From assembly GCA_963666985.2 (NCBI GenBank), contig CAXXIA010000002.1, positions 1,760,001 through 1,824,000 of the forward strand: a stretch of DNA of 64,000 nucleotides, in the 5' to 3' direction. The position numbers and the translations under genes are program-made. Positions 19,209 to 62,717 of this stretch are shown here, piece by piece. The notes under the pieces are model-generated. The model worked only from the letters and a program-made list of their open reading frames with translations, did not search any database and had not been told where the DNA came from. Each line of letters begins with the position of its first letter. The stretch's first letter is position 1. This DNA comes from Spirochaetia bacterium (GTDB lineage: Bacteria > Spirochaetota > Spirochaetia > DSM-2461).

Positions 19209-19426
19209 TTATAACAGCTGTTGATGCGCTCCGGCCGCTAAAAGTGTTTAGCGGCCTCCGGGGCTTCGCCCAAATTTCGTTTTGGCATGGCGTCTTGCAG
19301 ATGCAGATCCAGAAGTGATGTGATACAGTCAAAGGCGAACATGGTGTTGCTGTAGAAGAGCAAGAGCACATGCCAACCGGCTTTCAGCCGGACACGAAAC
19401 GTTCGCATAACAGCGGGCCGTTAATT
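19209..19426 (+). repeat. attC: attC-like site 1 (type A, 218 bp)
   Basis: AACAGCTGTTGATGCG...CGCATAACAGCGGGCCGTT. Confidence 0.85.
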
Positions 19427-19468
19427 GCAATATCGAGGACTCCGTTTTATAGAAAGGAGTTGAATGAC

Positions 19469-20203
19469 GTGAAAAACAAAATCTTGATCGCTTCAATAAT
19501 AGCAGTTCTATGTTTCCCTTTTGTGATCTATCTAACTAGATTTCCTGGACTATACTCTGCTAACTCGGTGGAATGGGGAATCTTCGGAACGTTTATTGGT
19601 GGACTACTATCATCAATTTTCGCTGGTTTGAGTTTTATTGTAGTCTTACTTGTATATTGGCGCTCAAATGAGGATAGAAAGAATCGAGAGTCGCGCGAAA
19701 CAGTTCTTAAACTGCTGGAAGAGCTAAGTAATAGATATAAGAAAATTGTGATTAGAATTGAAGATACTGCTCAGATCGGAGAAATGGTATTTTCCTATTT
19801 TAATAGTAGTGCTTTTCAGCTTTATAAATTGTACCAAGACTATCTTAAAAACAAAGAAAATGAAAACCTTAAGGGACAGGTTAAGGCGCAAGCCTTACAG
19901 ATGGTCTTCTCAATCAATACAATACGCGAGTATCTACGATTTGTTGTTCTTACTTATCGATACATTGTGAATAAGTCAATTGAGAAAGAATTTCTTTCAA
20001 TACTATCAGCAAGACTTACAGAACAAGAGATGATAGCTCTTTCTATTTTGTTGTATGACGAAATTGAAGCTGATGACAATTTGTTTAGCTATTTAAAGAA
20101 TATGAAATACGGACCAATCGAAGGCTATGCTGCAATCGGAAGAAGTCTTACAGATGCCTTAAAGCTGAATTCTCCGGAACTACCATCAAATTTGAGTTTA
20201 TGA
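19469..20203 (+). CDS. Membrane protein, putative abortive-infection (putAbiC-like) family (cassette 2)
   Basis: Two TM segments with WGIFGTFIGG motif; C-terminal ILSARLTEQE; AAGGAG RBS before GTG. Confidence 0.55.
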   Translation: MKNKILIASIIAVLCFPFVIYLTRFPGLYSANSVEWGIFGTFIGGLLSSIFAGLSFIVVLLVYWRSNEDRKNRESRETVLKLLEELSNRYKKIVIRIEDTAQIGEMVFSYFNSSAFQLYKLYQDYLKNKENENLKGQVKAQALQMVFSINTIREYLRFVVLTYRYIVNKSIEKEFLSILSARLTEQEMIALSILLYDEIEADDNLFSYLKNMKYGPIEGYAAIGRSLTDALKLNSPELPSNLSL

Positions 20204-20268
20204 TTAGGAATTATTGATTTACATGGAGAAGCGAGAATAATTGCTGGTTAGAAATGAAACGATACTGC

Positions 20269-20476
20269 AATTAACAGCTGTTGATGCGCTCCGGCCGCTA
20301 AAAGTGTTTAGCGGCCTCCGGGGCTTCGCCCAAATTTGCCTCTGTCATAGATTTTGCGAATGTCTGGCACTGTGGTAAGATGAGTTGCGGTTAGCGGTTG
20401 AGGTTGTGAAGAATCGCAAAATCTCCGCCAGTCGCTACGCGAACGGCAAACTTCGCATACCAGCGGACCGTTATTT
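20269..20476 (+). repeat. attC: attC-like site 2 (type B, 208 bp)
   Basis: Conserved termini; TTTGCC...AGATTTTGCG...CGCAAAATCT...GGCAAA arms. Confidence 0.85.
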
Positions 20477-20530
20477 GCAAGAATGAATGACGATTTCTCC
20501 TCGCCCATCCATGGGCTCGGTGGTTAGAAG

Positions 20531-21760
20531 ATGTCAAAATATAAGAAACGAGACAAATACCAGCAGCTATATGAGTTTTTAAAAGCAAAAGAAAGCAGAT
20601 CCGAGTCATTCACTGTTGAAGAAATAATAACCGCGACAGGTTATCAAGAAGGATCCGTAAAGGCATATATTCGAAACAAGCTCAATAATGTTTATCTATT
20701 CTTAATAGATGATAGTCACTATCAAGTTTCAGGAATTGCATCAAAGACACCTGATGATTTTGAATCGATTATGTCGCAAAAAAGCGATTTGGTTGTGTCA
20801 GACTCAGAAAGCCTATTTACAAGCCTTAGGGATCGTAGTCTTCAAGCGTTTTATACTGCAATATCTGTATATAACAATCCCTTGCATGAATATAGGATAG
20901 AATCCTTTTGTATTCTTTTATCAAATGCATGGGAACTTTTACTCAAGGCTAGAATTGTTCAACTGGAAGGTGAAGATAAAATATACAAATCAAAAGGGAA
21001 GACAATTTCGTTAACAGAAGCCTATCGTAAAGTCTTTCCACGTTCATCTGATCCTATTCACAAAAACTTAGAAACACTTACCGAGATTCGAGATTCAGCA
21101 GTACATCTACTTATTCCGGATATTCAACATTCTTTATCTCGTATATTTCAAGCTAGCATTTTTAATTTTCTTTCAAAGGTAAGAGAATACAAATATCCAA
21201 ATAAGTACCATAGCGATTTACCAGGTCTCTTATCTTTTGTTACAGATAAACAAGACGTTCCTGAAAATGTAATACGTCTAAAGTATGGAACCTATGCAAG
21301 TGGACTAATAAAAGAATTTATTGAAAAGAATACCTCACGCGAATCCGAAGTTTCCGATATGCGTTATTCAATACCAATCGACTACAAGGTAGTTCTGACA
21401 AAAAGTGAAAAGGAAGGAGATTTATCTATCCGTATAGATAAGGATGGAGAACCCGCCATACTGGTAGAAAAACCCAAGGATGTTAATAAAACGCATCCCT
21501 ATCTTCAGAAAAATGTAATAGAAGCCGTGAATCAAGGTCTCGATGATGTCGGTCGGTCTCAATACCATCTCAACCGATATTCGTTTCGTGGAGCTCTCGA
21601 AGTTGAAAAAGTTAGGAGAACACAATCCAATAAATTCTATCATTTATTAGAAAATCCGGAAGTTCATAAGTACTCACAAGCATTTATAGATCTTCTTCTC
21701 CACAAACTTTCAAACAGTGATAGTTACCTACAGTTGTGTAAAAAAGCTTTGAAAAAATAG
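20531..21760 (+). CDS. DUF3644-type (HEPN-like) protein (cassette 3)
   Basis: YNNP...RIESFCILLSNAWELLLKA and RDSAVH (RxxxxH). Confidence 0.7.
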   Translation: MSKYKKRDKYQQLYEFLKAKESRSESFTVEEIITATGYQEGSVKAYIRNKLNNVYLFLIDDSHYQVSGIASKTPDDFESIMSQKSDLVVSDSESLFTSLRDRSLQAFYTAISVYNNPLHEYRIESFCILLSNAWELLLKARIVQLEGEDKIYKSKGKTISLTEAYRKVFPRSSDPIHKNLETLTEIRDSAVHLLIPDIQHSLSRIFQASIFNFLSKVREYKYPNKYHSDLPGLLSFVTDKQDVPENVIRLKYGTYASGLIKEFIEKNTSRESEVSDMRYSIPIDYKVVLTKSEKEGDLSIRIDKDGEPAILVEKPKDVNKTHPYLQKNVIEAVNQGLDDVGRSQYHLNRYSFRGALEVEKVRRTQSNKFYHLLENPEVHKYSQAFIDLLLHKLSNSDSYLQLCKKALKK

Positions 21761-21821
21761 AAGTGGCCTGAAAGTACATCCTTGTACTTTCAGGGAGACT
21801 TATCCATCTCGTCATTCCTGC

Positions 21822-22039
21822 AAATAACAGCTGTTGATGCGCTTCGAATACATTTGCAGGCAAATGTATTCTCCGGGCCTTCGGCCAAATTTCGTTTTGG
21901 CATGGCATCTTGCAGATGCGTTTTCGAAAGTGATGTGATACAGTCAAAGGAGAACATGGCATTGCGTTAGAAGGGCAAGAGCGCATGCCAACCGGCTTCG
22001 CCGGACACGAAACGTTCGCATAACAGCGGGCCGTTTGGC
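21822..22039 (+). repeat. attC: attC-like site 3 (type A)
   Basis: Conserved termini; variant first hairpin GAATACATTTGC/GCAAATGTATTC. Confidence 0.85.
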
Positions 22040-22096
22040 GAAATCTGTTTTAGAAAAATATTTTTTTGCCTCACCTTCCATGGTTCGGCTTTGTTC

Positions 22097-22381
22097 TCAC
22101 CTGTAGGCGCTACTTCGGGGTTCGAGAGAAATAATACTGACAATTCTAACGGCGTCATCGATTACATAGAAAAGTCTATAGTTACCAATTCGATACCGCC
22201 ACGTTTCTGGTTTCCAGTCTTTCAACTTTTTGATGTTTTTTCCGAAATAGGGGTTTTTGCGTAATTGGTCGTAGACCATGCCTGAAATCTTTCTGTATTG
22301 TGATGAACTTCCATTCATTCGTAGCTTTTTTAGATCTTTAAGAAATTGATCCGTTTCAAAAATTTTAAATCGTTCAGACAA
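22097..22381 (-). CDS. RelE/ParE family toxin (cassette 4)
   Basis: WRYRIGNYRLFY motif; overlaps antitoxin. Confidence 0.88.
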   Translation of the reverse strand: MSERFKIFETDQFLKDLKKLRMNGSSSQYRKISGMVYDQLRKNPYFGKNIKKLKDWKPETWRYRIGNYRLFYVIDDAVRIVSIISLEPRSSAYR

Positions 22382-22613
22382 ATCGACCTCTACCGTTCTT
22401 AGCGTCTTTGGTTCCCTGCTTCATTCGTTTTAAAAGGCTTTCATCAGAGAGGATGCTTTCCATTTCGAAATCGTCGGCATATTCAACCTCTTCGATGTAT
22501 CTCATTGTTGCAGTCTCGATAAAATTTGAAATCGAACGATTCTCAGCATCGGCATGGACTTTTAAGGAATCGTAGAGTTCTTCATCAATTCGTAGAGAAA
22601 CAGTTTTGGTCAT
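22374..22613 (-). CDS. Ribbon-helix-helix antitoxin (cassette 4)
   Basis: KTVSLRIDEELY...ENRSISNFI; acidic C-terminus. Confidence 0.85.
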   Translation of the reverse strand: MTKTVSLRIDEELYDSLKVHADAENRSISNFIETATMRYIEEVEYADDFEMESILSDESLLKRMKQGTKDAKNGRGRFV

Positions 22614-22755
22614 ATCATTATCCCCTCTATGAATACATTGTATTCATATGTGTTTAAATTAGTTCATAGCGTTATTGAAGTCAATAGGGCGATTTTAGAG
22701 GTCTCCCAAGTACATCCTTGTACTTGGAAGAGTGGTAAAACACCAAACAGACTTC

Positions 22756-23027
22756 GCCAAACAGCTGTTGATGCGCGGCGGCCGCTAATGGGATTAGCGG
22801 CCTTGGGCCGAGCGATGGAAAACCAAGAGCTTTTAAATTTCTGTTGAAGGGAAAAATCAAATTGGTTCGGCTCGGCCAAATTTCGCTTTGGCCATGGTTC
22901 TTGCAGATGCGTTTCTAAAAGTGGTGTGATAAGCTGAAGAGCGAACGGGCTTTCTGTTAAAGTGCAAGAACGCATGCCAACCGGCTTCGCCGGACGCGAA
23001 ACTTCGCATACCAGCGGAACGTTTAAC
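22756..23027 (+). repeat. attC: attC-like site 4 (type A with extra arm, 272 bp)
   Basis: Conserved termini; inserted GGCCGAGC...GCTCGGCC arm. Confidence 0.85.
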
Positions 23028-23155
23028 GAAAAAATCAGAAGGCCTTTTCCATGCCGCCTTTCTTGGTGCCATGAATAGGAATATTCAATTTCCTAAAAGA
23101 ATTAATGGTAATAATGTATAGTTAGTAATCCTGTAGTGATAACGAAGAGTAGAAA

Positions 23156-23860
23156 ATGGAAAACATAATCAAAATACTCGGTGAGCATCCAACTGCTGTT
23201 ATTGCAGATGCTGCTTTTAAGATTGGAGCAACAGTTCGTCTTCTTCCTTCAAATCTATACTCTCTTAAGCCAGATGCACGATTAATCGGTAAAGTTACAA
23301 CCGTTAAATGCAATAACGATTTGGTCTCTATTCTCGAGGGGCTTATGCGTGCAGAGAGTGGAGATGTTTTACTAATCGACAATAATGGTTTCTCAGGGGC
23401 AGGTTGTATCGGAGATGTCATCGTTTCGGAAGCTGTTCGTAAGAAAATCTCTGGGATTGTTGTCTATGGATCCATTAGAGATAGCCAGCAAATCTCTACG
23501 ATGGAAATTTCTGTGTTCTGTACTGGAAAATGTTCTGTTGGGCCATTGAAGCTACCTGGGCAGCAGTCGAAAAATGGTCTTGTTAACGTAGTCTTGGAAA
23601 TAGAGGGAACTTCTATAAAACCTGGAGATATTCTTATTGGCGATGTTGATGGTGTAATTGTTGTAGAAACCGATCGCCTTGATGAAATTATTAGCAAAGC
23701 AGAAGAAATTGAACATAAAGAAGAGACTTTAATGAAAAGAATCGAGTCAGGAGAAAGTCTTACAGACATATTTGGGGTTAAGAAGTTCTTAGAGAAAAGA
23801 GAAGGGGATCCAGAGTATTTATTCAATTCTCATTTGGCAGAACAGAATGAAACGATTTGA
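23156..23860 (+). CDS. RraA family protein (HMG aldolase-like) (cassette 5)
   Basis: GDVLLID, GCIGDV, GSIRD, PGDILIGDVDGV. Confidence 0.88.
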   Translation: MENIIKILGEHPTAVIADAAFKIGATVRLLPSNLYSLKPDARLIGKVTTVKCNNDLVSILEGLMRAESGDVLLIDNNGFSGAGCIGDVIVSEAVRKKISGIVVYGSIRDSQQISTMEISVFCTGKCSVGPLKLPGQQSKNGLVNVVLEIEGTSIKPGDILIGDVDGVIVVETDRLDEIISKAEEIEHKEETLMKRIESGESLTDIFGVKKFLEKREGDPEYLFNSHLAEQNETI

Positions 23861-23931
23861 TTCAGTGAAAGGTGAGCCAATAAGTGATTAGATAGAGGTA
23901 TTTTCTATTTGGCATTTTTAGGGATTTCTTC

Positions 23932-24208
23932 GTTAAACAGCTGTTGATGCGCGTCGGCCGCTAAAGGTGTTTAGCGGCCTTGGGCCGAGCGATGGGTATT
24001 GGTTAAGTTTTATTATTTTTGAAGAAGAAGAGAAAATCAGATTGAATCGGCTCGGCCAAATTTCGCTTTGTCATGGCTCTTGCAGATGCGTTTCCGAAAG
24101 TGATGTGATACCATCAAAGGCGAACAATGAATTGCTGTAGAAGAGCAAGAGCGCATGCCAACCGGCTTCGCCGGCCGCGAAACTTCGCATACCAGCGGGC
24201 CGTTAAAG
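23932..24208 (+). repeat. attC: attC-like site 5 (type A with extra arm, 277 bp)
   Basis: Conserved termini; extra GGCCGAGC/GCTCGGCC arm. Confidence 0.85.
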
Positions 24209-25047
24209 GAAATTCGGACGACGGAATAAAAAAGGTCTCTTTTTTGAGGGTTTTTTTCTGTGGCAGCCTCATTCCCTTCATTTGAACAAGTAACAAAAAC
24301 AGAATCCCTTTGAGTGTTCAGATTTTTTTAACAGGCCTTCCTTCTCTTTGAACGAAACAGGTCGTTTTCATACGGCTTTCTCCTCACCCCCCTCGCCTTT
24401 GAGATCATCTTCAAGAAAGAAACCAAAAGCATCGGAATAAAACTCGCTTCGGGATCAGAAGCACTTAGTGATAAGGCGGTCGGTTCGGGAGAACTTGTGT
24501 CGTGAAGGTTTATGGTTTTTAACGATTATGGGAATCGCTCATGAGAAAATCCTTATCCGTTGATGGCTATCGCTTCGGGAAATGAGGCGCTTCCGGTTTG
24601 ATCGGTTCGCGAGAAAAGGGGTGGTAGCCTGAGAAGAATGAAGGGATGGAGATGAGAAGAATGGAGATTGTTTTCTCCGTAGTTTTGCCTTTGAGAATAA
24701 GGCTGAATGCTTTAAGAGAATACCGGTGTAGAAGGAGAAGACGAACATTCGGATTTACAGAATCCGTCCTGAGAGAAAGAGGTCGGGAAAGGCGAATTGC
24801 ATCGGATGAAGGCCTGAGTAAAGTGATGAGGCGATGAAAGGGAGAATAGGGGTCAGTACGAGAGAATGGATAGAAATTCCGTTAAATGAGTAAAAAGCGG
24901 AAGAGGGAAGTCTGTAAAAGGATGAATGAAGAAAAGATGAGAAGGAGAAGGGCAAGAAGAATCGAAACAAAGGGTCCGGCAAAACGGCGAGGAGGGGTGA
25001 GGAGAAGGAGAGGTCTTTATAGATGCGTCGTCCGAACTTCCTTTAAC
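24203..25047. other. Gene-less cassette 6 (about 840 bp body)
   Basis: 22-bp terminal inverted repeat; only short low-complexity ORFs. Confidence 0.7.
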
Positions 25048-25248
25048 AGCTGTTGATGCGCTTCGGCCGCTAAAGGTGTTTAGCGGCCTGCGGGGCTTCG
25101 CCCAAATTTGCCTCTGTCATAGATTTTGCTTAAGTCTGTCGCTATGGTAAGATGAGTTGTAGTTAGCGGTTGATGTTGTGAAGATTCGCAAAATCTCCGC
25201 CAGTCGCTACGCGAACGGCAAACTTCGCATACCAGCGGGCCGTTATGT
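25041..25248 (+). repeat. attC: attC-like site 6 (type B)
   Basis: Conserved termini and arms. Confidence 0.85.
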
Positions 25249-25298
25249 GCTTTTTCGTTTTTCCAGTTAATAACATTAATTGCCATAAGGAGGGAGAA

Positions 25299-25751
25299 AT
25301 GGGCATCAATTATCAATTAAAAGCAGAAAAAGGCAAAATCGAAGATGAATTAAATTCCGCAATTAACAGGCTTATTTCTGGCTGCGAAAAGCTTGATATG
25401 GCTTTAGCTTTCGAAATCTTCTCAGATTCATCTGAGTTCTTGATGATGGGAACGGATGGAAGCCTTTGTGATTATCAGACTTACTTGAAAAACAATATCG
25501 ACTATTTATCCGGTTGTGAAAGTTTTAAGTTGATAACGTTTGATCGAAAAATACGAATCATAAACAGTGAGGTAGCCATCTTTTCATGGGCTTATGGGGT
25601 TGAGGCAAAATTAAGAACGGGAGATATTGATATTATTGATAATGCAGGAGCTTCTTTTGTCTTCCGAAAAATAGAGAATACATGGAAGGTTGTATATTAT
25701 CATGAGTCATCAGTACCTCCGAAAAGAAACTCTCCACCAAGAGAATCATGA
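25299..25751 (+). CDS. NTF2/SnoaL-like protein (cassette 7)
   Basis: C-terminal FVFRKIENTWKVVYYHES; AAGGAGG RBS. Confidence 0.8.
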   Translation: MGINYQLKAEKGKIEDELNSAINRLISGCEKLDMALAFEIFSDSSEFLMMGTDGSLCDYQTYLKNNIDYLSGCESFKLITFDRKIRIINSEVAIFSWAYGVEAKLRTGDIDIIDNAGASFVFRKIENTWKVVYYHESSVPPKRNSPPRES

Positions 25752-25845
25752 CGATTGAAATCCAAGTGTAAATAAGGGATTACACAGAACGTCGCGCAAG
25801 TATCGCTTTCTGTTGCTGTTTATAGTTATGTCGGAATCAGAATAT

Positions 25846-26334: not shown

Positions 26335-26400
26335 GGTTAATTCCGAATACTCTGTTTAAGAAGATGAACTCTCAATAAAGATAGATATGAGGGAAAAAGC

Positions 26401-26609
26401 ACATAACAGCTGTTGATGCGCTCCGGCCGCTAAATAGTGTTTAGCGGCCTTCGGGGCTTCGCCCAAATTTGCCTCTGTCACAGATTTTGCGAATGTCTGG
26501 TGTTGTGGTAAGATGATTTGCAGTTGACGGTTAATGTTGTGAAGAATCGCAAAATCTCTGCCAGTCGCTGCGCGAACGGCAAACTTCGCATACCAGCGGG
26601 CCGTTAAGT
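26401..26609 (+). repeat. attC: attC-like site 7 (type B)
   Basis: Conserved termini and arms. Confidence 0.85.
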
Positions 26610-26841
26610 GTATTATTGGAGGCATTTTGAAGAAATTATGGATTCTGTTTCTTTTTCCATTTCTTCTGGGATGTGTGACTCGTGCAGATGAAAAGTATAA
26701 AGGAACTATCTACGATCCTGGTATTGAGGAACCCATATCGTTGCATCCCTTTTACTTCTCACATGCACTTGCAGAGGCAATTTGGAATTCCCAGCTTTTG
26801 ATAGACACTGCTAAACTCAAAATGAGGAAGGAGTGTACATC

Positions 26842-27129: not shown

Positions 27130-27167
27130 GATATGCCTTCATCAAAAACTACAGGGCTGAATTCAGA

Positions 27168-30067: not shown

Positions 30068-30279
30068 ACTTAACAGCTGTTGATGCGCTCCGGCCGCTAA
30101 AGGTGTTTAGCGGCCTTCGGGGCTCCGCCCAAATTTCGTTTTGGCGATGGCTCTTGCAGATGCGTTTTTAGAAGTTGTGTGATAAGTTGAAGAGCGAACA
30201 GGCTTTCTGCTAAAAGCAAGAGCACATGCCAACCGGCTACGCCGGACACGAAACTTCGCATACCAGCGGGCCGTTAGGT
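30068..30279 (+). repeat. attC: attC-like site 8 (type A)
   Basis: Conserved termini and arms. Confidence 0.85.
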
Positions 30280-30319
30280 GATTTGCAAATGAGATACAAT
30301 TAGATCAAAGGAGAGCGCC

Positions 30320-31473: not shown

Positions 31474-31682
31474 ACCTAACAGCTGTTGATGCGCTCCGGC
31501 GTCAACTTGCGTTGCCGCCTCCGGGGCTTCGCCCAAATTTGCCTCTGTCATAGATTTTGCGGAAGGCTGGCGGCTGTGATAGGATGGCTTTCAGTAATCG
31601 GCCGATGTTGTTCTGTCTGGCAAAATCTACACCAGTCGCCTTCGGCGAACGGCAAACTTCGCATAACAGCAGAACGTTTAAT
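31474..31682 (+). repeat. attC: attC-like site 9 (type B variant)
   Basis: Conserved termini; first hairpin GGCGTCAAC/GTTGCCGCC. Confidence 0.85.
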
Positions 31683-33072: not shown

Positions 33073-33285
33073 ATTAAACAGCTGTTGATGCGCTCCGGCC
33101 GCTAAAAGTGTTTAGCGGCCTTCGGGGCTCCGCCCAAATTTCGCTTTGGCTATGGTTCTTGCAGATGCGTTCTTGGAAGTTGTGTGATAGGCTCAAATGC
33201 GAACATGCTTTCTGTTGAAGTGCAAGAACACATGCCAACCGGCTTCGCCGGACGCGAAACTTCGCATACCAGCGGAACGTTTTAC
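33073..33285 (+). repeat. attC: attC-like site 10 (type A)
   Basis: Conserved termini and arms. Confidence 0.85.
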
Positions 33286-34670: not shown

Positions 34671-34877
34671 GTAAAACAGCTGTTGATGCGCTCCGGCGGT
34701 AACTATGTTACCGCCTTCGGGGCTCCGCCCAAATTTGCCTCTGTCATAGATTTTGCGAATGACCGATGGCTATGGTAAGATGAGTTGCAGTTAGTGGATG
34801 AGGCAGTGAAGAATCGCAAAATCTCCGCCAGTCGCTTCGCGAACGGCAAACATTCGCATAACAGCGGACCGTTTTAT
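34671..34877 (+). repeat. attC: attC-like site 11 (type B, 207 bp)
   Basis: Conserved termini; first hairpin GGCGGTAAC/GTTACCGCC. Confidence 0.85.
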
Positions 34878-37548: not shown

Positions 37549-37757
37549 ATAAAACAGCTGTTGATGCGCTTCGGCGTCAACTGGCGTTGCCGCCTCCGGG
37601 GCTCCGCCCAAATTTGCCTCTATCATAGATTTTGCAGAAGGCTGGCGGCTGTGATAGGATGATTTTCAGTAAACGACTGCTGTTGTTCTGACAGGCAAAA
37701 TCTACGCCAGTCGCCTACGGCGAACGGCAAACTTCGCATACCAGCGGAACGTTTGAT
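37549..37757 (+). repeat. attC: attC-like site 12 (type B variant)
   Basis: Conserved termini; resembles site 9. Confidence 0.85.
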
Positions 37758-37993
37758 GACAGAATTAATTTAGGAAATAGTTTTTCTCATTTTTATAAAA
37801 AAGAGGAGGCAATTCCCCTCACAAAAATCAATTTAAATTCGTGAAAAGCTCTGAAAGTTTTTGAGAAAAATCAAAGTGTTCCCTTTGTCGTGGTTGATTC
37901 TCCTGATATGAGCCTTGTTCAGTTGAATAAGAACAAGAGAGCCTTTTCACGGTGTTTGATCTTTATGGGCTTTGCTTAATTCCGTCATCAAAC
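37752..37993. other. Gene-less cassette 13 (about 240 bp body)
   Basis: No ORF in the track; near-identical to 41981-42222. Confidence 0.75.
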
Positions 37994-38255
37994 AGCTGTT
38001 GATACGCTCCGGCCGCTAAATCTCTTTAGCGGCCTTCGGGCCGAGAAGATGGTGTAATTTTAGTGTTATGATATTTGCAAAGAGGAAATCAAATTGAAAC
38101 GGCTCGGCCAAATTTCGCTTTGGCTGCTTTTGTTGAGATGTTTTGGTTCGTAATCTGTGGTAATGTTAAAAGCGAGTGGTTGTTCTGGTAATTCCGTGGG
38201 GCAGCCAACCGGCTACGCCGGACGCGAAACTTCGTATACCAGCGGAACGTTAATT
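37987..38255 (+). repeat. attC: attC-like site 13 (type D with extra arm, 269 bp)
   Basis: Compensatory ATACG/CGTAT in place of ATGCG/CGCAT. Confidence 0.85.
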
Positions 38256-40823: not shown

Positions 40824-41035
40824 AATTAACAGCTGTTGATGCGCTCCGGCTGCTAACTTCGTTATCAGCCTCCGGGGCTCCGCCCAAATTTCGCTTTGGC
40901 ATGGCATCTTGCAGATGCGTTTCTGGAAGTTGTGTGATAGGCTGAAGAGCGAACAGGCTTTCTGTTAAAAGCAAGAGCGCATGCCAACCGGCTACGCCGG
41001 ACACGAAACATTCGCATAACAGCGGAACGTTAAAT
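40824..41035 (+). repeat. attC: attC-like site 14 (type A)
   Basis: Conserved termini and arms. Confidence 0.85.
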
Positions 41036-41773: not shown

Positions 41774-41986
41774 ATTTAACAGCTGTTGATGCGCTCCGGC
41801 CGCTAAAAGTGTTTAGCGGCCTTCGGGGCTTCGCCCAAATTTCGCTTTGACCATGGTTCTTGCAGATGCGTTCCCGGAAGTTGTGTGATAGGCTCAAATG
41901 CGAACAGGCTTTCTGTTGAAGTGCAAGAACACATGCCAACCGGCTTCGCCGGACGCGAAACTTCGCATACCAGCAGCCCGTTTGAT
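41774..41986 (+). repeat. attC: attC-like site 15 (type A)
   Basis: Conserved termini and arms. Confidence 0.85.
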
Positions 41987-42222
41987 GACAGAATTAATTT
42001 AAGAAATAGTTTTTCTCATTTTCTTAAAAAAGAGAAGGCAATTCTCCTCATAAATATCAATTTAAATTCGTGAAAAGCTCTGAAAGTTTTTGAGAAAAAT
42101 CAAAGTGTTCCAGTTGTCGAGGTTGATTCTCCTGATATGAGTCTTGTTCAGTTGAATAAGAACAAGAGAGCCTTTTCACGGTGTTTGATCTTTATGGGCT
42201 TTGCTTAATTCCGTCATCAAAC
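41981..42222. other. Gene-less cassette 16 (duplicate of cassette 13)
   Basis: Near-identical to 37752-37993. Confidence 0.75.
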
Positions 42223-42485
42223 AGCTGTTGATACGCTCCGGCCGCTAAATCTCTTTAGCGGCCTTCGGGCCGAGAAGATGGTTATTAGTTGAGTGTTATG
42301 ATATTTGCAAAGAGGAAATGAGATTGAAGCGGCTCGGCCAAATTTCGCTTTGGCTGCTTTTGTTGAGATGTCTTGGTTCGTAATCTGTGGTAATGTTAAA
42401 AGCGAGCGGAGGTTCTGGTAATTCCGTGGGGCAGCCAACCGGCTCCGCCGGACGCGAAACTTCGTATACCAGCGGGCCGTTAAGC
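42216..42485 (+). repeat. attC: attC-like site 16 (type D with extra arm)
   Basis: Near-identical to site 13. Confidence 0.85.
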
Positions 42486-42509: not shown

Positions 42510-43316
42510 ATGAAAGAAATAATTGAATTCTATAATACATTTAATGAAAGTGGCCGAATCACCGAGGAACAAACACTCGAATACATTCGAACCAAAGAGA
42601 TAATCTCAAGATATCTGGATAATTTCAAAACAGTCTTGGATATAGGAGGTGCCGCCGGTGCATATTCCTTTTGGTTGGCGTCATTAGGTTTCAGTGTAAG
42701 CCTCATTGATATTGTACCCAAGCATATAGAACAAGCAAAAGAATACTCCGCACAGAGTGGTATCACTTTGTCCTCTGCCGAAGTCGGAAACGCTCTTGAA
42801 CTTCCTTATGCAGAAGATTCATATGATATTGTTTTACTGATGGGTCCTTTGTATCACTTGCAAAAAAGGGAAGATCGAATCACTGCGATAAGAGAGGCGA
42901 AACGCGTCCTTCGGCCCAATGGATATCTGTTTATAGCAGCAATAACGAGATTCGCTGGTATATATGATGGCTTTCTACGAGGAATGATCGAAGATGAAAA
43001 GTATTGCAATATCATTAATCGAGATCTCGAAGATGGAAAACATACCCCAGGGAACACAGAATATTTTACAACATCCTTCTTTCATAAACCTGAAGAACTA
43101 TTGAATGAAATTTCTGAAGTTGGTTTTGAACAAAAGAAAATAATTGCAGTAGAAGGTTTTGCTGGCCTTATGCCAAACATTGATGAAAAGCTAAAAGACC
43201 AACAATATCGGGAGAAATTACTAAGCTATCTAAAACGTTTAGAAGAAGAAGAAAGTTTGATGGGGGCATCGATTCATTTCCTTGCCGTATGTCGGGGTAA
43301 GGTAAATATCGCTTAA
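42510..43316 (+). CDS. Class I SAM-dependent methyltransferase (cassette 17)
   Basis: VLDIGGAAG, LLMGPLYHL, RVLRPNG; stop codon lies in the attC left core. Confidence 0.9.
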   Translation: MKEIIEFYNTFNESGRITEEQTLEYIRTKEIISRYLDNFKTVLDIGGAAGAYSFWLASLGFSVSLIDIVPKHIEQAKEYSAQSGITLSSAEVGNALELPYAEDSYDIVLLMGPLYHLQKREDRITAIREAKRVLRPNGYLFIAAITRFAGIYDGFLRGMIEDEKYCNIINRDLEDGKHTPGNTEYFTTSFFHKPEELLNEISEVGFEQKKIIAVEGFAGLMPNIDEKLKDQQYREKLLSYLKRLEEEESLMGASIHFLAVCRGKVNIA

Positions 43317-43521
43317 CAGCTGTTGATGCGCTCCGGCCGCTAAAGGTGTTTAGCGGCCTCCGGGGCTCCGCCCAAATTTCGCTTTGACATGGCTCTTGCA
43401 GATGCGTTCCTGAAAGTTGTGTGGTAGTCTGAAGAACGAACGGGCTTTCTGCTAAAAGCAAGAGCGCATGCCAACCGGCTTCGCCGGCCGCGAAACTTCG
43501 CATACCAGCGGGCCGTTAAAG
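43311..43521 (+). repeat. attC: attC-like site 17 (type A)
   Basis: Conserved termini and arms. Confidence 0.85.
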
Positions 43522-44626: not shown

Positions 44627-44834
44627 CTTTAACAGCTGTTGATGCGCTCCGGCTGATAACGGGGTTATCAGCCTTCGGGGCTTCGCCCAAATTCGTCTTT
44701 GTCAGAGATTTTGCTTGTGTCTCACGTTGTGGTAAGATGAGTAGCAGTTAGCGGATAAGGTTGTGAAGAATCGCAAAATCTCCGCCAACCGCTGGCGCGG
44801 ACGACGAACTTCGCATACCAGCGGGCCGTTAAGT
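44627..44834 (+). repeat. attC: attC-like site 18 (type B, covarying TTCGTC/GACGAA arm)
   Basis: Conserved termini with compensatory changes. Confidence 0.85.
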
Positions 44835-48177: not shown

Positions 48178-48385
48178 AGCTAACAGCTGTTGATGCGCTC
48201 CGGCCGCTAAAAGTGTTTAGCAGCCTCCGGGGCTTCGCCCAAATTTGCCTCTGTCACAGATTTTGCGTAAGGCTAGAGCTGTGCTAAAATGAGTTGCAGT
48301 TGGCGGATGATGGTGTAAAGATTCGCAAAATCTCCGCCAGTCGCTTCGCGAGCGGCAAACTTCGCATACCAGCGGAACGTTTTAT
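48178..48385 (+). repeat. attC: attC-like site 20 (type B)
   Basis: Conserved termini and arms. Confidence 0.85.
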
Positions 48386-49290: not shown

Positions 49291-49498
49291 ATAAAACAGC
49301 TGTTAATGCGCTCCGGCCGCTAAAAGTGTTTAGCGGCCTGCGGGGCTTCGCCCAAATTTGCCTCTGTCACAGATTTTGCGTAAGTCTGTCTCTGTGGTAA
49401 GATGAGTTACAGTTAGCGGTTGAGGTTGTGAATAATCGCAAAATCTCCGCCAGTCGCTTCGCGAACGGCAAACTTCGCATACCAGCGGAACGTTTAAC
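49291..49498 (+). repeat. attC: attC-like site 21 (type B)
   Basis: Conserved termini (CTGTTAATGCG variant). Confidence 0.85.
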
Positions 49499-50655: not shown

Positions 50656-50868
50656 GTTAAACAGCTGTTGATGCGCTCCGGCGTCAACTGGCGTTGCCGC
50701 CTCCGGGGCTTCGCCCAAATTTCGCTTTGGCTATGGCTCTTGCAGATGCAGCCTCAAAAGTGTTGTGATACCATCAAAGGCGAGCAAGGCATTGCTGTAA
50801 AAGTGCAAGAGCGCATGCCAACCGGCTTCGCCGGGCGCGAAACTTCGCATAACAGCAGAACGTTAAAT
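50656..50868 (+). repeat. attC: attC-like site 22 (type A)
   Basis: Conserved termini and arms. Confidence 0.85.
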
Positions 50869-55525: not shown

Positions 55526-55733
55526 ATTTAACAGCTGTTGATGCGCTCCGGCGATAATCAGGGATTATCGCCTCCGGGCCTTCGGCCAAATTTGCCTCTG
55601 TCATAGATTTTGCGTAAGGCTGCTGTTGTGGTAAGATGAGTTGTAGTTTGCGGTTGAGGTTGTGAAGAATCGCAAAATCTCCGCCAGTCGCTTGAGCGAA
55701 CGGCAAACTTCGCATACCAGCGGGCCGTTTGGC
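55526..55733 (+). repeat. attC: attC-like site 23 (type B)
   Basis: Conserved termini; first hairpin GGCGATAATC/GATTATCGCC. Confidence 0.85.
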
Positions 55734-56814: not shown

Positions 56815-57022
56815 GCCAAACAGCTGTTGATGCGCTCCGGCCGCTAAAAGTGTTTAGCGGCCTCCGGGGCTACGCCCAAATTTGCCTCTGTCATAGATTT
56901 TGCGTATGTCTGACGTTGTGGTAAGATGAGTTGCAGTTAGCGGTTAAGGTTGTGAAGAATCGCAAAATCTCCGCCAGTCGCTTTGCGAACGGCAAACTTC
57001 GCATACCAGCGGACCGTTTAAT
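56815..57022 (+). repeat. attC: attC-like site 24 (type B)
   Basis: Conserved termini and arms. Confidence 0.85.
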
Positions 57023-58333: not shown

Positions 58334-58548
58334 ATTAAACAGCTGTTGATGCGCTCCGAATACATTTGCATGCAAATGTATTCTCCGGGGCTTCGCCCAA
58401 ATTTCGCTTTGGCGATGGTTCTTGCAGATGCGTTCCTAGAAGTTGTGTGATAGGCTCAAATGCGAACAGGTTTTCCGTTGAAGTGCAAGAACGCATGCCA
58501 ACCGGCTACGCCGGCCGCGAAACTTCGCATACCAGCGGAACGTTATGT
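58334..58548 (+). repeat. attC: attC-like site 25 (type A)
   Basis: Conserved termini; first hairpin as in site 3. Confidence 0.85.
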
Positions 58549-58598
58549 GCTTTTTCGTTTTTCCAGTTAATAACATTAATTGCCATAAGGAGGGAGAA

Positions 58599-59051
58599 AT
58601 GGGCATCAATTATCAATTAAAAGCAGAAAAAGGCAAAATCGAAGATGAATTAAATTCCGCAATTAACAGGCTTATTTCTGGCTGCGAAAAGCTTGATATG
58701 GCTTTAGCCTTCGAAATCTTCTCAGATTCATCTGAGTTCTTGATGATGGGAACGGATGGAAGCCTTTGTGATTATCAGACTTACTTGAAAAACAATATCG
58801 ACTATTTATCCGGTTGTGAAAGTTTTAAGTTGATAACGTTTGATCGAAAAATACGAATCATAAACAGTGAGGTAGCTATCTTCTCATGGGCTTATGGGGT
58901 TGAGGCAAAATTAAGAACGGGAGATATTGATATTATTGATAATGCAGGAGCTTCTTTTGTCTTCCGAAAAATAGAGAATACATGGAAGGTTGTATATTAT
59001 CATGAGTCATCAGTACCTCCGAAAAGAAACTCTCCACCAAGAGAATCATGA
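58599..59051 (+). CDS. NTF2/SnoaL-like protein (cassette 26, duplicate of cassette 7)
   Basis: Protein identical to 25299-25751. Confidence 0.8.
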   Translation: MGINYQLKAEKGKIEDELNSAINRLISGCEKLDMALAFEIFSDSSEFLMMGTDGSLCDYQTYLKNNIDYLSGCESFKLITFDRKIRIINSEVAIFSWAYGVEAKLRTGDIDIIDNAGASFVFRKIENTWKVVYYHESSVPPKRNSPPRES

Positions 59052-59616: not shown

Positions 59617-59824
59617 ACATAACAGCTGTTGATGCGCTCCGGCCGCTAAAAGTGTTTAGCGGCCTCCGGGGCTTCGCCCAAATTTGCCTCTGTCATAGAT
59701 TTTGCGTAAGTCTGTCTCTGTGGTATTATAAGTTGCAGTTAGCGATTGAGATTGTAAAATTTCGCAAAATCTCCGCCAGTCGCTACGCGAACGGCAAACT
59801 TCGCATAACAGCGGGCCGTTTGAT
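59617..59824 (+). repeat. attC: attC-like site 26 (type B)
   Basis: Conserved termini and arms. Confidence 0.85.
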
Positions 59825-59842
59825 GAACTTTTCGCTTTGAAG

Positions 59843-61185
59843 TGAGCGACCAGGACATCCTTTACATTTTAGGTTCAGGACATCGTTTACACAAAACAAG
59901 CTTAAACGAAGCATTTGAATCCATCAACTGAAGGGAGAAAGGCATAGGTTTTCAAATCAATTTCTCCCAATCTGAGATTGTCAAACCATACGGTGAAGCT
60001 CTCATCCTCATTCTCCCGAAGTCCAACTTGGTATCCTGAAAAGACATAACTGACAAAGACTCTATGCCTGTCGATAGTAACGGCTCCCCGATTATTCACC
60101 ATTCTCACCAGATACCCGGCCGGGTAGATCACCTGAGGGATTCGAGGAGGGAAAGGCCGATTGGACTTTGTGTAAATACTTCCGGGAGTCTGCATTTTGA
60201 GAGCTTCATGCGGACGAACACTGTTGAATTGATTTCTCCAAACATCAAAGTGTGCCTGATGTTCTGAGAGGTTCCCTTGAATCTGTCCCTGCAATTCGCG
60301 TTTGATATCGGCATGCATTCTTTCATGCCCTCCGTTTTCACAAGGCCTTCCTGGAGTGATGCGATCAAGTTCAATTCCCAAGGCCAGCCACCAAACACTT
60401 AAGCGGGTGAGTCCGAGTAATCCCTTCATGGAAGCAAAGGGTGGTCCGTTATCGGAGCGGATTACCCGAGGGATTCCATAGAGAGAAAAGAGCTTTTCGA
60501 ACTCTGTTCTAACTTCTTGTGTGTCAGCCTTTTGGAGAGCTTTGATGGTGAAGATGTATTTGGAGTATTCATCCCGAACCGTCAGAGGTTCACACTTTTC
60601 ATTATCGGGAGTGTACCACCATCCTTTGAAGTCGACCGTCCAGATATCATTAGGGGCTTTGGCCTGCAGATGTGTTTGGATTCGGCTGCCTTTGGTCTGC
60701 TGCCGTTTCTTTCGATGATGAACCAGTCCTGCTTTATCAAGGATGCGTTTGACGGTGGTGAGGCTTGGGGGATTATTATGAGGATGGGTCTTCTGGTAGA
60801 TCTCGAGAATCTTTTTTGGCCCCCAGCTGGAGTTGTGCAACGTCTTGATCCGGATAATACCGCATATAACGTCTTCAGGCGTTTGGTTGGGGCTGCTGCG
60901 AGGTCTACGGGGTCGTTCCTTCAACCCGGCGAGCCCTTCCTGGATAAACCGGTTTTTCCATTTAAGGCCTGTCGGCCGGGAGATCCCGTACTCAGCACAG
61001 AGGTCTTTCATACAGACATGGGGATCCATGGCCTTGAGGGCGAACTCGAATTTGACGTCCATAATATTGGTCTCCTTCCACGGCATAACCAGCACCTCGA
61101 TAAGGGAAAGTGCTGATCATTTTAGTTCTTGTCGTGTAAAGGATGTCCTGGTACTCTCGTGTAAACGATGTCCTGAACCCGTACC
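59843..61185 (-). mobile_element. IS481-family element copy 3 (1343 bp)
   Basis: Same ends as copies 1 and 2; AAG(T) duplication. Confidence 0.9.
59902..61095 (-). CDS. IS481-family transposase
   Basis: Protein identical to 38334-39527. Confidence 0.9.
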   Translation of the reverse strand: MLVMPWKETNIMDVKFEFALKAMDPHVCMKDLCAEYGISRPTGLKWKNRFIQEGLAGLKERPRRPRSSPNQTPEDVICGIIRIKTLHNSSWGPKKILEIYQKTHPHNNPPSLTTVKRILDKAGLVHHRKKRQQTKGSRIQTHLQAKAPNDIWTVDFKGWWYTPDNEKCEPLTVRDEYSKYIFTIKALQKADTQEVRTEFEKLFSLYGIPRVIRSDNGPPFASMKGLLGLTRLSVWWLALGIELDRITPGRPCENGGHERMHADIKRELQGQIQGNLSEHQAHFDVWRNQFNSVRPHEALKMQTPGSIYTKSNRPFPPRIPQVIYPAGYLVRMVNNRGAVTIDRHRVFVSYVFSGYQVGLRENEDESFTVWFDNLRLGEIDLKTYAFLPSVDGFKCFV

Positions 61186-61269
61186 AAGTCGTTTTATCTT
61201 GTCTGAGTTAGAAGGAATGTTTTTCTTATTGTGAAAATGATATTTCTTATGCCAGCGAATCTATTCAAA

Positions 61270-61422
61270 TTATACGGTAATCATTTTTTGATTCTTTTTA
61301 AGAATCTTCGTTAAGGATTCTCCCCAGTATTTTACTTCAATTCCAACATCTTCAAGAAGAGCCGTAACTCCAAGTTGATCGGCGCAAGCCTTACACTCAG
61401 AAACCTTTGCACCATTCTTGCT
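61270..61422 (-). pseudogene. 3' fragment of a DsrE-like gene (cassette 27)
   Basis: Reads KNGAKVSECKACADQLGVTALLEDVGIEVKYWGESLTKILKKNQKMITV-stop with no start codon. Confidence 0.55.
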
Positions 61423-61802
61423 CAATTGCTACCCGATAGAATCATATTAATAATTCCTTCTTCAGTTTCGGGTATATCATAATCTCCAGTGAGTTTCCCA
61501 GGATAGTGATACGCAATCCCCTCTTTCTCATTTCTTTCGAGACAATCTAAAAGCTGTTCAGTGCTATTTTTCTTAATAAATCTGGCAAATGCTCTTATTC
61601 GTATTTTATCCAGCATACTTCCATTACATGGAAATTCATCGCATTCCCAACAACCATTGAGTTCTCTTTCTTTGCAACAGCGAAGATTTTTACACCATTC
61701 CTTATTTGCACAACCATCGTTACGGCATCCAAGACAATCTGCATTCTCACTGCAAACAGCACAACCAAGACCGCAATATGCAATGCCTTTTTGTCTATCC
61801 AT
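61422..61802 (-). CDS. DUF3795-type Cys-rich protein (cassette 27)
   Basis: AYCGLGCAVC, CLGC, CC, GCWECDEFPC. Confidence 0.8.
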   Translation of the reverse strand: MDRQKGIAYCGLGCAVCSENADCLGCRNDGCANKEWCKNLRCCKERELNGCWECDEFPCNGSMLDKIRIRAFARFIKKNSTEQLLDCLERNEKEGIAYHYPGKLTGDYDIPETEEGIINMILSGSN

Positions 61803-61830
61803 ACACTTTATCTCTTTTAAGAAATCTGAA

Positions 61831-62157
61831 TTATCGTAATTGACGATTCAACAAAATATCTTCAACATTTCTGCGTCCGTCCATGACGGCCATAATAAAA
61901 ATCTTTTGCTGTTCTACCCGGTAAATCACTCGCCATGGAGAGATAATAATCTCACGATATCGATAAACATTCAGATCCTTCAATTCGGGAACAACGCGTC
62001 CGTGTTGTGGGAAATCAGTCAGTCTGGATACTTCGGTTTCGATTTCATCAAGAATCTTACGAGCAATGCTGATTGAGTCTATTTTGATATACTCAATGAT
62101 TTCAAAGAGATCTTCACGGGCAGTTTTGGTCCAGAAAATCCGAAACGATTTAGGCAT
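61831..62157 (-). CDS. RelE/ParE family toxin (cassette 27)
   Basis: AREDL.EI.EYI, FPQHGRVVPEL, WRVIY, DGRR. Confidence 0.9.
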   Translation of the reverse strand: MPKSFRIFWTKTAREDLFEIIEYIKIDSISIARKILDEIETEVSRLTDFPQHGRVVPELKDLNVYRYREIIISPWRVIYRVEQQKIFIMAVMDGRRNVEDILLNRQLR

Positions 62158-62425
62158 TTTCTAAAAGGTTCCGAGCGTCTTGAAAGACAGAGGCATGTTC
62201 TACAAGTTCGTTGTTTTCGGTATCTCTTTCGCCTGCAGCCATAAGTTTAAGAATCCCAAGGCTATTTCTCATATCTTGATAAGACTTTGTATCCATAAGG
62301 ACAGCTTTCGCTTCACCATTTTGAGTTATCACAATAGGGCTATGAGTTTCATTAACGCGTTTGAGCGTATCGGCGGCATGAGTCTTGATATATGAAATTG
62401 GCTTAATATCTTCCGAAACATTCAT
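62150..62425 (-). CDS. Phd/YefM antitoxin (cassette 27)
   Basis: IKPISYIK, PIVITQNGEAKAVL. Confidence 0.9.
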   Translation of the reverse strand: MNVSEDIKPISYIKTHAADTLKRVNETHSPIVITQNGEAKAVLMDTKSYQDMRNSLGILKLMAAGERDTENNELVEHASVFQDARNLLENA

Positions 62426-62509
62426 AGTGTTCTCCCAACCTATCTAGTCTTTATATGTTACTCTAAAAAGACTGGCGAGGCAATGTGAGAGTGTGAGTAG
62501 GAAAAGTTC

Positions 62510-62717
62510 ATCAAACAGCTGTTGATGCGCTCCGGCCGCTAAAGGTGTTTAACGGCCTTCGGGGCTTCGCCCAAATTTGCCTCTGTCACAGATTTTGCGA
62601 GAGGCTAGGGCTGTGGTAAGATGAATGGGAGTAAGCGGATGAGGTTGTGAAGAATCGCAAAATCTCCGCCAGTCGCTTCGCGAGCGGCAAACTTCGCATA
62701 CCAGCAGAACGTTAAGT
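62510..62717 (+). repeat. attC: attC-like site 27 (type B)
   Basis: Conserved termini and arms. Confidence 0.85.

Follow-up and report, generated by a model that had tools for sequence, protein, structure and literature searches.

Nivina et al. (2016, PMC5027507) stated that the bottom strand of most mobile-integron attC sites has a conserved tip, 5'-GAA-3'. In the same report, the bottom strands of 263 attC sites folded 2.12 kcal/mol better than the top strands and contained more G:T pairs (1.24 versus 0.39), and this was put down to purine stacking. The published length range of attC sites is 57-141 bp (PMC5027507, PMC5371416). Among short DNA oligonucleotides, GCGAAGC melts at 76.5 °C and contains a sheared G-A pair (Hirao review, PMC13037366), and for d(GNA) loops the choice of closing pair has a strong influence on stability (PMC3201870). 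Here we describe a family of direct repeats in a 64,000-nucleotide (nt) stretch of the genome of a Spirochaetia bacterium (the window; positions 1760001-1824000 of contig C2). The repeats belong to a very large chromosomal cassette array of the integron type, in which they are the attC-like recombination sites, and we consider it likely from their sequences that the C-GNA-G mini-hairpins they carry serve as extra-stable folding nuclei in bottom-strand single-stranded DNA (ssDNA). The site coordinates below are window positions.

The window holds 27 direct repeats of 207-277 nt, all on the + strand and none on the opposite strand. They extend from 19209, where the first one begins, to 62717, the end of the last one, exactly as in the preliminary description of this stretch. 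Each repeat starts with xxxxAAC and finishes with GTTxxxx (GTT plus 4 nt), and the 3' 7 nt of a site are the exact reverse complement of the 5' 7 nt of the next site in 26/26 pairs. This junction rule is the signature of integron cassette recombination, in which a cassette comprises half of the site on either side of it. The 27 sites are the first part of a larger array of at least 83 sites; the 83 complete ones, 199-277 nt long, lie between 1779209 and 1933534 of contig C2 (~156 kb), and the rule holds there for 75/82 pairs, breaking where a site was missed or an element was inserted. The end triplets AAC and GTT of the attC ends RYYYAAC and GTTRRRY were present in 27/27 window sites, and the strict GTTRRRY extension in only 7/27. 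The contigs of four sequencing runs over 19000-38999 break at the repeats, with site-end/site-start joints whose sides are only 25-52 nt. Protein coding was rejected as a cause of the loop pattern reported below, because the repeats are intergenic and only some open reading frames (ORFs) begin within them.

Each site contains two short GC-rich hairpins, B and E, whose loops had been noted earlier to vary almost only as TNC on the top strand. We tabulated the loops in all 27 window sites and in the 83 sites of the array. The window sites are as follows, with the loops (and some full hairpins) given as top-strand sequence.

19209..19426, + strand: site 1, 218 nt; B at 19261-19271, GGGC-TTC-GCCC; E at 19377-19391, CCGGCT-TTC-AGCCGG
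20269..20476, + strand: site 2, 208 nt; B at 20321-20331, TTC; E at 20432-20442, TCGC-TAC-GCGA
21822..22039, + strand: site 3, 218 nt; B at 21876-21886, GGCC-TTC-GGCC (compensatory stem); E at 21992-22004, CCGGC-TTC-GCCGG
22756..23027, + strand: site 4, 272 nt; insertion hairpin in place of B; E at 22981-22993, TTC
23932..24208, + strand: site 5, 277 nt; insertion hairpin in place of B; E at 24162-24174, TTC
25041..25248, + strand: site 6, 208 nt; B at 25093-25103, TTC; E at 25204-25214, TAC
26401..26609, + strand: site 7, 209 nt; B at 26454-26464, TTC; E at 26565-26575, TGC
30068..30279, + strand: site 8, 212 nt; B at 30120-30130, TCC; E at 30233-30245, TAC
31474..31682, + strand: site 9, 209 nt; B at 31524-31534, TTC; E at 31636-31648, TCGCC-TTC-GGCGA
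33073..33285, + strand: site 10, 213 nt; B at 33125-33135, TCC; E at 33239-33251, TTC
34671..34877, + strand: site 11, 207 nt; B at 34720-34730, TCC; E at 34832-34842, TTC
37549..37757, + strand: site 12, 209 nt; B at 37599-37609, TCC; E at 37711-37723, TCGCC-TAC-GGCGA
37987..38255, + strand: site 13, 269 nt; insertion hairpin in place of B; E at 38209-38221, TAC
40824..41035, + strand: site 14, 212 nt; B at 40875-40885, TCC; E at 40988-41000, TAC
41774..41986, + strand: site 15, 213 nt; B at 41826-41836, TTC; E at 41940-41952, TTC
42216..42485, + strand: site 16, 270 nt; insertion hairpin in place of B; E at 42439-42451, TCC
43311..43521, + strand: site 17, 211 nt; B at 43363-43373, TCC; E at 43475-43487, TTC
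44627..44834, + strand: site 18, 208 nt; B at 44678-44688, TTC; E region at 44783-44797, non-TNC, CCGC-TGGC-GCGG or a 5-nt loop
46696..46903, + strand: site 19, 208 nt; B at 46746-46756, TTC; E at 46858-46870, ACTCC-TGC-GGAGT
48178..48385, + strand: site 20, 208 nt; B at 48230-48240, TTC; E at 48341-48351, TTC
49291..49498, + strand: site 21, 208 nt; B at 49343-49353, TTC; E at 49454-49464, TTC
50656..50868, + strand: site 22, 213 nt; B at 50706-50716, TTC; E at 50822-50834, TTC
55526..55733, + strand: site 23, 208 nt; B at 55577-55587, GGCC-TTC-GGCC; E at 55688-55699, TCGC-TTGA-GCGA, a tetraloop
56815..57022, + strand: site 24, 208 nt; B at 56867-56877, TAC; E at 56978-56988, TCGC-TTT-GCGA (bottom strand AAA)
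58334..58548, + strand: site 25, 215 nt; B at 58388-58398, TTC; E at 58502-58514, TAC
59617..59824, + strand: site 26, 208 nt; B at 59669-59679, TTC; E at 59780-59790, TAC
62510..62717, + strand: site 27, 208 nt; B at 62562-62572, TTC; E at 62673-62683, TTC

TNC loops were found at 47/54 of the B and E positions in the window, so the earlier observation holds. Hairpin B (GGGC-TNC-GCCC or GGCC-TNC-GGCC) is a triloop in 23/27 sites (TTC 16, TCC 6, TAC 1) and is swapped for a long insertion hairpin in sites 4, 5, 13 and 16. Hairpin E, built on the stems CCGGC, TCGC, TCGCC or ACTCC, has a TNC loop in 24/27 sites (TTC 13, TAC 8, TGC 2, TCC 1); the three others, TGGC or a 5-nt loop in site 18, TTGA in site 23 and TTT in site 24, are exactly the sites that had been named as exceptions. 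The E hairpin of site 1 apparently has a 5-nt loop, TTTCA, and is better read as CCGGCT-TTC-AGCCGG, with a TTC loop on a T-A closing pair. On the bottom strand, B and E read C-GNA-G, mostly within GCGNAGC or CCGNAGG, and a G-N-A loop with the 5'C-G3' closing pair and a second G-C or C-G pair of the known mini-hairpins was present at 47/54 window positions, 46 of them C-G-closed. Over the 83 sites, B comprised 63 TNC loops, 1 TCT, 18 insertions or unparsed hairpins and 1 decayed copy, and E comprised 68 TNC, 6 TTT, 1 TAT, 2 TTGA, 3 TGGC-type and 3 aberrant loops. The closing pair of the 68 E loops with TNC was C-G in 64, one of which (g36) was read by eye from the printed segment, and T-A in 4. 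A UNCG-type RNA tetraloop was rejected, since the register of GGGC-TTC-GCCC is that of a triloop and not C(UUCG)G.

The T-N-C pattern is real and far beyond chance. We counted GC-rich hairpins whose stem has 4 bp or more and whose 3-nt loop is closed by C-G. On the + strand of the array, 132 of 172 such hairpins had TNC and 3 had GNA loops, compared to 285 versus 261 among 3378 in the rest of the genome. Likewise, the heptamer GCTNCGC and its mirror occurred 126 versus 6 times in the array and 1211 versus 1180 times elsewhere, and the bottom strand of the array holds GCGNAGC 126 times and CCGNAGG 98 times. The array copies are paralogues and these counts are not independent events, a point that parsimony and other genomes address. 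In class 1 of the site classes described below (36 sequences, with a mean of 2.7 changes per column), the loop positions T, N and C changed 0, 14 and 0 times in B and 0, 14 and 4 times in E; in class 2 (26 sequences) those of B changed 0, 6 and 2 times. In the stem of B, the second pair underwent 5 two-sided, compensatory changes in class 1. Among 75 E hairpins, loop position 1 was always T (75), position 2 was T 38, A 21, G 10 and C 6, and position 3 was C 68 and T 7, and the stem pairs varied solely among Watson-Crick pairs. A sheared G.A pair across the loop requires fixed outer bases with a free middle base, and this is the pattern seen, the middle base being among the fastest-changing columns of the sites.

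The preliminary description had further held that the functional molecule is bottom-strand ssDNA and not RNA. On a skeleton of Watson-Crick pairs only, we counted single mismatches, a bottom-strand G.T being an A.C or C.A on the top strand, and found 37 bottom-strand G.T wobbles in the 83 sites plus 11 in 17 related sites of other genomes (48), compared to 6 and 0 wobbles on the top strand. Folding energies were calculated with the DNA parameters of ViennaRNA, in which GAA and TTC loops have equal energy and GNA has no bonus, so that the energy gaps between the strands are independent of the loop motif. The bottom strand was lower by a mean of 1.74 kcal/mol and was the lower one in 64/83 sites, and the consensus energies of the three site classes were lower for the bottom than for the top strand in all cases (-22.5/-21.2, -30.8/-25.9 and -31.0/-29.0). 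Against dinucleotide shuffles, the mean z of the 27 window sites was -3.90 for the bottom and -2.85 for the top strand, the bottom being lower in 22/27. For site 2, the bottom DNA strand folded at -41.2 kcal/mol (z -3.86, 0/200 shuffles as good) and the top at -35.9 kcal/mol (z -1.80), and the top strand as RNA had a z of -1.60. The top strand, whose equally good folding would have spoken against the earlier view, was therefore higher in energy on average, and a bottom strand that folds better and has more G.T pairs is what is described for attC sites.

The location of the array is relevant as well. dnaA lies at C2:1708613-1709947 and the cumulative GC skew has its minimum and turn at ~1.68 Mb, which places the + strand of the array on the leading strand and its bottom strand on the leading-strand template, the orientation reported for the largest chromosomal integrons (Loot et al. 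2017, PMC5371416). The B and E loops are closed by 5'C...G3' followed by a G-C or C-G pair, giving GCGNAGC or CCGNAGG on the bottom strand. Five lines at the sequence level, each independent of the loop motif, speak for a folded bottom strand of DNA and against the top strand or its RNA, and so the earlier view is supported, by sequence evidence only, in wobbles, energy, RNA fold, loop pattern and context.

Consensus folding with DNA parameters was carried out on three site classes of 36, 26 and 16 distinct sequences, and all three gave one branched architecture on both strands. A short R box is followed by a 4-bp L helix (GCTG/CAGC), a helix ATGCG/CGCAT and a junction, which bears hairpin A (a variable stem of 8-12 bp), mini-hairpin B and helix C; helix C leads to the long hairpin D and mini-hairpin E. 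The imperfect pairing of R'' with R' and L'' with L' known from attC sites is represented by the GCTG/CAGC and ATGCG/CGCAT helices in all three classes. The spacer between R and L is asymmetric, with 1 nt (A) on the R''-L'' arm versus 5 nt (GGAAC, GGACC or GAAAC) on the L'-R' arm. Neither this genome nor its relatives showed the unpaired central spacer of ~5-6 nt on each arm of attC sites. The two or three extrahelical bases of attC sites (a G in L'' and a T 6-8 nt on, in the R''-L'' arm) were likewise not found here, where there is only a 3x2 internal loop, TTG/AC. The lengths, 199-277 nt in the 83 sites and 82-266 nt in the relatives, do not fit the range of 57-141 bp.

Hairpin A is flanked by two 3-nt linkers that show the same pattern as the loops. 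Linker 1 is TNC in 75/83 sites and linker 2 in 71/83, and the C before linker 1 and the G after linker 2 are present in 82/83. By parsimony, the middle bases of the linkers changed 1, 3, 4 and 9 times and the outer bases 0 times or once. On the bottom strand, the commonest linker pairs are GGA/GGA (34/83 sites) and GAA/GGA (29/83). By analogy, the two linkers may add a further bottom-strand-only G.A motif, facing each other as a purine zipper; alternatively, judging from its sequence, linker 2 could form a CC-GNA-GG mini-hairpin of its own. The zipper would resemble the (GGA)2 guanine zipper of human satellite III or centromeric TGGAA repeats (Chou, Zhu and Reid 1994, as cited in PMC11014236), in that the linkers could face each other between the C-G pair and the stem of hairpin A. 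The flanking C and G are invariant and so provide no covariation for the zipper.

The gene next to site 1 encodes a recombinase, and beside it lies a candidate attI.

17133..17966, - strand: 277-aa IntI/XerA-like tyrosine recombinase, divergent from the cassette array and adjoining site 1
17970..17981, + strand: candidate attI crossover, the palindrome GCGTTATAACGC holding GTTATAA, whose reverse complement is the 5' 7 nt of site 1

The recombinase has the Pfam domains Phage_integrase and Phage_int_SAM_4. It narrowly passes the NCBIfam XerA/integron integrase model (224.6 bits, cut-off 220) and is under the cut-off of 265 of the integron integrase model TIGR02249, with 220 bits in 2 stretches. 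Its closest solved structure is VchIntIA (2a3v), with a two-piece match that skips ~43 aa of VchIntIA. In an alignment with canonical IntI of the same class, the recombinase and its relatives in two other genomes (G022 and G017) were without three segments in the IntI-specific region (~42 aa in total); at the catalytic positions R, K, H, R, H and Y, the sequences align. The adjacent integrase therefore does not have the additional IntI-specific segment of an integron platform. Protein and site appear to have changed together, as the integrase is without ~42 aa and the sites have a 1/5-nt spacer and no extrahelical bases. By likeness to IntI, we infer that the bottom strand would be the one cleaved by this non-canonical integrase. 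The attI is a weak candidate, namely a single 7-mer match with a chance expectation of ~7% in 1.2 kb. About four copies of a short ttccttatcacgaat-like motif lie at 16900-17140, in the gap downstream of the integrase gene.

Of the 60 relatives searched, 12 have short integrases of the same type, with 35-60% identity. An integrase-based search for related loci in genome contigs gave no confirmed relative, and the relatives came from a separate genome search. Among the short-integrase loci with usable flanks, arrays with the same kind of site were present in G022 (13 site ends), G045 (9) and G017 (5), which span two families of the class. Their sites are 82-266 nt long and have the same 1/5 spacer; most of them (e.g. 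G045_2291 and G017_2825) have an uninterrupted 11-bp stem, and G022_1548 has one mismatch in the stem. They contain the module ATGC-TCC-GC-TTC-GC-TNC-G-GGC-TTC-GCC, and 16 of the 25 triloops predicted in 17 sites are TNC. The stems, unrelated to those in the window genome, are GC, GTC/GAC, CCAC/GTGG, TATCAC/GTGATA, TTTACCAC/GTGGTAAA and GCTTGT/ACAAGC. A search for the 3'-end pattern beside the other short-integrase loci (three in G015, one each in G034, G024 and G002, and a second one in G022) found no related site, and short-integrase loci without matching sites may carry other site types or none.

Canonical integron integrases over the cut-off were found in 44 of the 151 genomes of the class searched, and the window genome was not among them. 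One canonical chromosomal integron (genome G145) was used for comparison.

C1:4505300-4525299 of G145 (locus L038), - strand: canonical chromosomal integron with 9 branched attC sites of 134-143 nt

This integron is without GNA triloops, which indicates that the GNA signature goes with the site family of the window and not with all chromosomal integrons. G045 holds both types, a canonical integrase over the cut-off (C3:28113-29042 of that genome) and the short type with its own array (C2:570434-571222 of that genome), the latter with one internal TAG.

Hairpin D of the window sites contains a weak promoter-like sequence (TTGCGA, 16 nt, TG-G-TAAGAT), which was not listed by a simple promoter scan. 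In sites of 144-146 nt in G022, hairpin D contains TTGACA, a gap of 17-19 nt and TATAAT or TTATAC, pointing into the next cassette. Judged by sequence, these elements may be promoters built into the recombination sites. The G022 sites with a promoter-like hairpin D, all in locus L013, are:

2619-2763: promoter-like hairpin D
3113-3258: promoter-like hairpin D
11817-11960: promoter-like hairpin D
12559-12702: promoter-like hairpin D
13557-13702: promoter-like hairpin D

Some cassettes are present twice in the array, as seen from duplicated cassette starts that are 99% identical over 300 nt (25220-25519 and 58520-58819) or 93% identical over 300 nt (37706-38005 and 41935-42234). Three near-identical IS481-type elements, encoding a 397-aa transposase with rve and HTH domains, follow directly after attC sites 13, 22 and 26:

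38268-39530: IS481-type copy after site 13
50880-52140 (approximately): IS481-type copy after site 22
59836-61100: IS481-type copy after site 26

Adjacent ORFs of 417 and 254 aa lie at 51964-53978, and the 254-aa ORF, like 7 identical copies in the genome, matches a DnaA model weakly; the pair is probably IstA/IstB of an IS21-type element within the array. An ALIL frameshift pseudoknot (Rfam RF01497, 100.6 bits, 28614-28730) at the junction of the overlapping ORFs 28336-28656 and 28656-29567 belongs to an IS3-type element inside a cassette.

To explain the one-sided loops, we suggest that the loop G and A of the bottom strand would form a sheared G.A pair over the C-G closing pair, as in d(GCGNAGC). 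The short bottom-strand branches would form first and resist melting. They would probably also resist single-strand-binding protein (SSB) like the GC-rich tip of attCaadA7, in which the apical 6 bp stay paired in the presence of SSB and form the part that IntI recognises (Grieb et al. 2017, PMC5737091). The branched top of the site (200 nt) would then fold correctly and join both recombinase-binding boxes. The top strand, with its pyrimidine T-N-C loops, would lack this aid, which would add to the strand bias.

Several points weigh against this explanation. The G.A physics on which it rests comes from published work on short oligonucleotides and other DNA, so the stability is taken over and does not derive from these sites; likewise, as the folding parameters include no GNA bonus, the stability effect itself lies outside the computed energies. 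Loop swaps published for canonical sites changed little. In attCaadA7, inversion of the 3-nt tip left structure and recombination unchanged (PMC5027507; Mukhortava et al. 2018, PMC6393395). A change of the top of Vibrio cholerae repeat (VCR) sites to GAA gave a 1.6-fold gain and a change to TTC a 2.4-fold loss (Bouvier et al. 2009, PMC2727003); the same paper cites Johansson 2004 for the loss of IntI1 binding on a change from GAA to TTC in attCaadA1. In the array itself, 8 loops have C-to-T changes that would abolish the G.A pair, and the T-N-C pattern does not extend to every hairpin, the tips of hairpin A being mostly 4-nt loops (AGTG, GGTG, TCTC) or C-GAG-G. The 5-nt bulge beside the crossover is purine-rich on the top strand (GGAAC), and AACGTT is palindromic, so that AAC is present on both strands at the crossover bulge. 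As for other genomes, 9 of the 25 triloops in the relatives are non-TNC, and G022 and G045 have CCCC-NNNN-GGGG hairpins with varied tetraloops. The canonical integron of G145 has no triloop among 19 hairpin loops and carries purine AAGA loops (G-AAGA-C) on the top strand, and its bottom strand is still favoured by 6.4 kcal/mol.

Other explanations of the loop asymmetry have to be considered. The motif C-T-N-C-G / C-G-N-A-G might be read in duplex or cruciform DNA by the recombinase, by an accessory protein or by a modifying enzyme. Alternatively, cruciform extrusion might simply favour short perfect palindromes around a 3-nt centre. In either case the asymmetry of the loop would be incidental. 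The C-TNC-G pentamer indeed occurs also in both linkers, where no hairpin is closed (75/83 and 71/83), and sites with the bottom strand on the leading-strand template must extrude from the duplex with both strands folding (PMC5371416). However, with a duplex motif neither the covariation of the flanking stems nor the location of the wobbles on one strand (48 versus 6) is accounted for, and no candidate binding protein was identified, so that we consider it improbable. Inheritance together with mutation bias is a second candidate, in which the loops copy an ancestral TTC tip and the one-sidedness results from strand-biased mutation. It would agree with the fact that all 83 sites are paralogues and that C-to-T transitions at loop position 3 (8 loops) outnumber the other kinds of exception, and C-to-T changes on one strand could also produce the wobble asymmetry. 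It does not explain why 36 sequences show 14 changes at the middle loop base and 0 at the first, why three other genomes have the pattern again on unrelated stems, or why stem changes are compensatory, such as the 5 paired ones at the second pair of B, and in our opinion it is quite improbable.

A role at the RNA level has been considered too, with the hairpins acting in the top-strand transcript as 3'-end stabilisers, as terminators of cassette mRNAs or as elements of the 5' untranslated region. Most cassette ORFs have the top strand as their sense strand, which makes transcription of the sites probable, and AAATTT follows hairpin B. However, the A.C appositions on the sense strand (37 and 11) far exceed the G.U-compatible ones (6 and 0), and the RNA of site 2 folds no better than ~5% of its shuffles (z -1.6). 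To our knowledge, C-UNC-G triloops are not a known stable RNA motif. B and E are not among the 25 terminator-like sites listed in 19000-38500, a few of which overlap other parts of the repeats. In the same interval, the simple promoter scan gave 48 promoter-like sites compared to a shuffle mean of 49.7, i.e. no excess, and Rfam at gathering thresholds recognised no family in the repeats, its only match being the ALIL pseudoknot of the IS3-type element. We therefore give the RNA-level role very little probability, and the folding nuclei in bottom-strand ssDNA remain our preferred explanation.

An extension of the preferred explanation, which we regard as possible yet rather doubtful, is that the integrase lineage lost the segment that reads the extrahelical bases, with sites that are without them, and that strand identity and folding are written as sheared G.A motifs on one strand (2-3 C-GNA-G mini-hairpins plus the GNA/GNA linker zipper at the base of hairpin A), the same physics explaining the GAA tip of resistance-integron attC sites. 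If this is true, one-sided GNA loops would mark the folding strand in any single-strand recombination site. The preferred explanation itself would give a concrete physical reason (a sheared G.A pair over C-G) for a feature of integrons that has so far been explained only by purine stacking, and it would offer a simple sequence test of the folding strand in unknown sites of this kind; the feature is seen here to scale up to branched sites of 200 nt. The array would probably be missed or mislabelled by standard integron finders, because the sites exceed the published attC range and the integrase is below the integron-integrase cut-off.

The bottom-strand heptamers of B and E are identical in sequence to the d(GCGNAGC)/d(GCGAAGC) mini-hairpins and share their 5'C...G3' closing pair and second G-C pair. 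Where the review of these mini-hairpins (PMC13037366) lists natural examples, they are phage replication origins and promoters, and integrons are unmentioned there. A literature search over the main full texts of papers that combined integron or attC with sheared, mini-hairpin or triloop terms found no paper that draws the link, and one loose usage of 'mini-hairpin-like'.

The VCR sites of Vibrio cholerae, known in complex with VchIntIA from structure 2A3V, resemble the sites described here in forming a large same-orientation array of a homogeneous site family, in having a branched variable top and in the position of the bottom strand on the leading-strand template. However, the window sites are longer than 57-141 bp, their spacer is 1/5 nt and not ~5 nt on each arm, and no conserved extrahelical G and T were found; unlike the VCR-type platform, the integrase is without ~42 aa of the IntI-specific region. 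The attC sites of mobile integrons (attCaadA7, attCaadA1 and attCereA2; PMC5027507, PMC2727003) share with the window sites a G-A-A purine loop on the recombined strand, a GC-rich apical stem, a bottom strand more stable than the top and an enrichment of G.T pairs on the bottom strand. In these papers the GAA is explained by purine stacking, and their account of the tip makes no tie to the sheared G.A mini-hairpin. The loop in the window is G-N-A with a free middle base, and each site has two mini-hairpins (up to three in the relatives) plus two G-N-A linkers, placed on the branches of a 199-277-nt site, whereas the mobile sites have a single tip on a 60-nt hairpin. Thus, the trait is already known in principle from the GAA tip on the bottom strand of resistance or mobile-integron attC sites (Nivina 2016), and the window extends it. 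New features are the presence of several GNA motifs in each branched site, the GNA linkers, and the neighbouring integrase of 277 aa, from which the IntI-specific insertion is missing. The more unusual part is the setting: a very large array, branched sites that are over-long, have an asymmetric spacer and are free of extrahelical bases, and an integrase that is without the IntI-specific segment.

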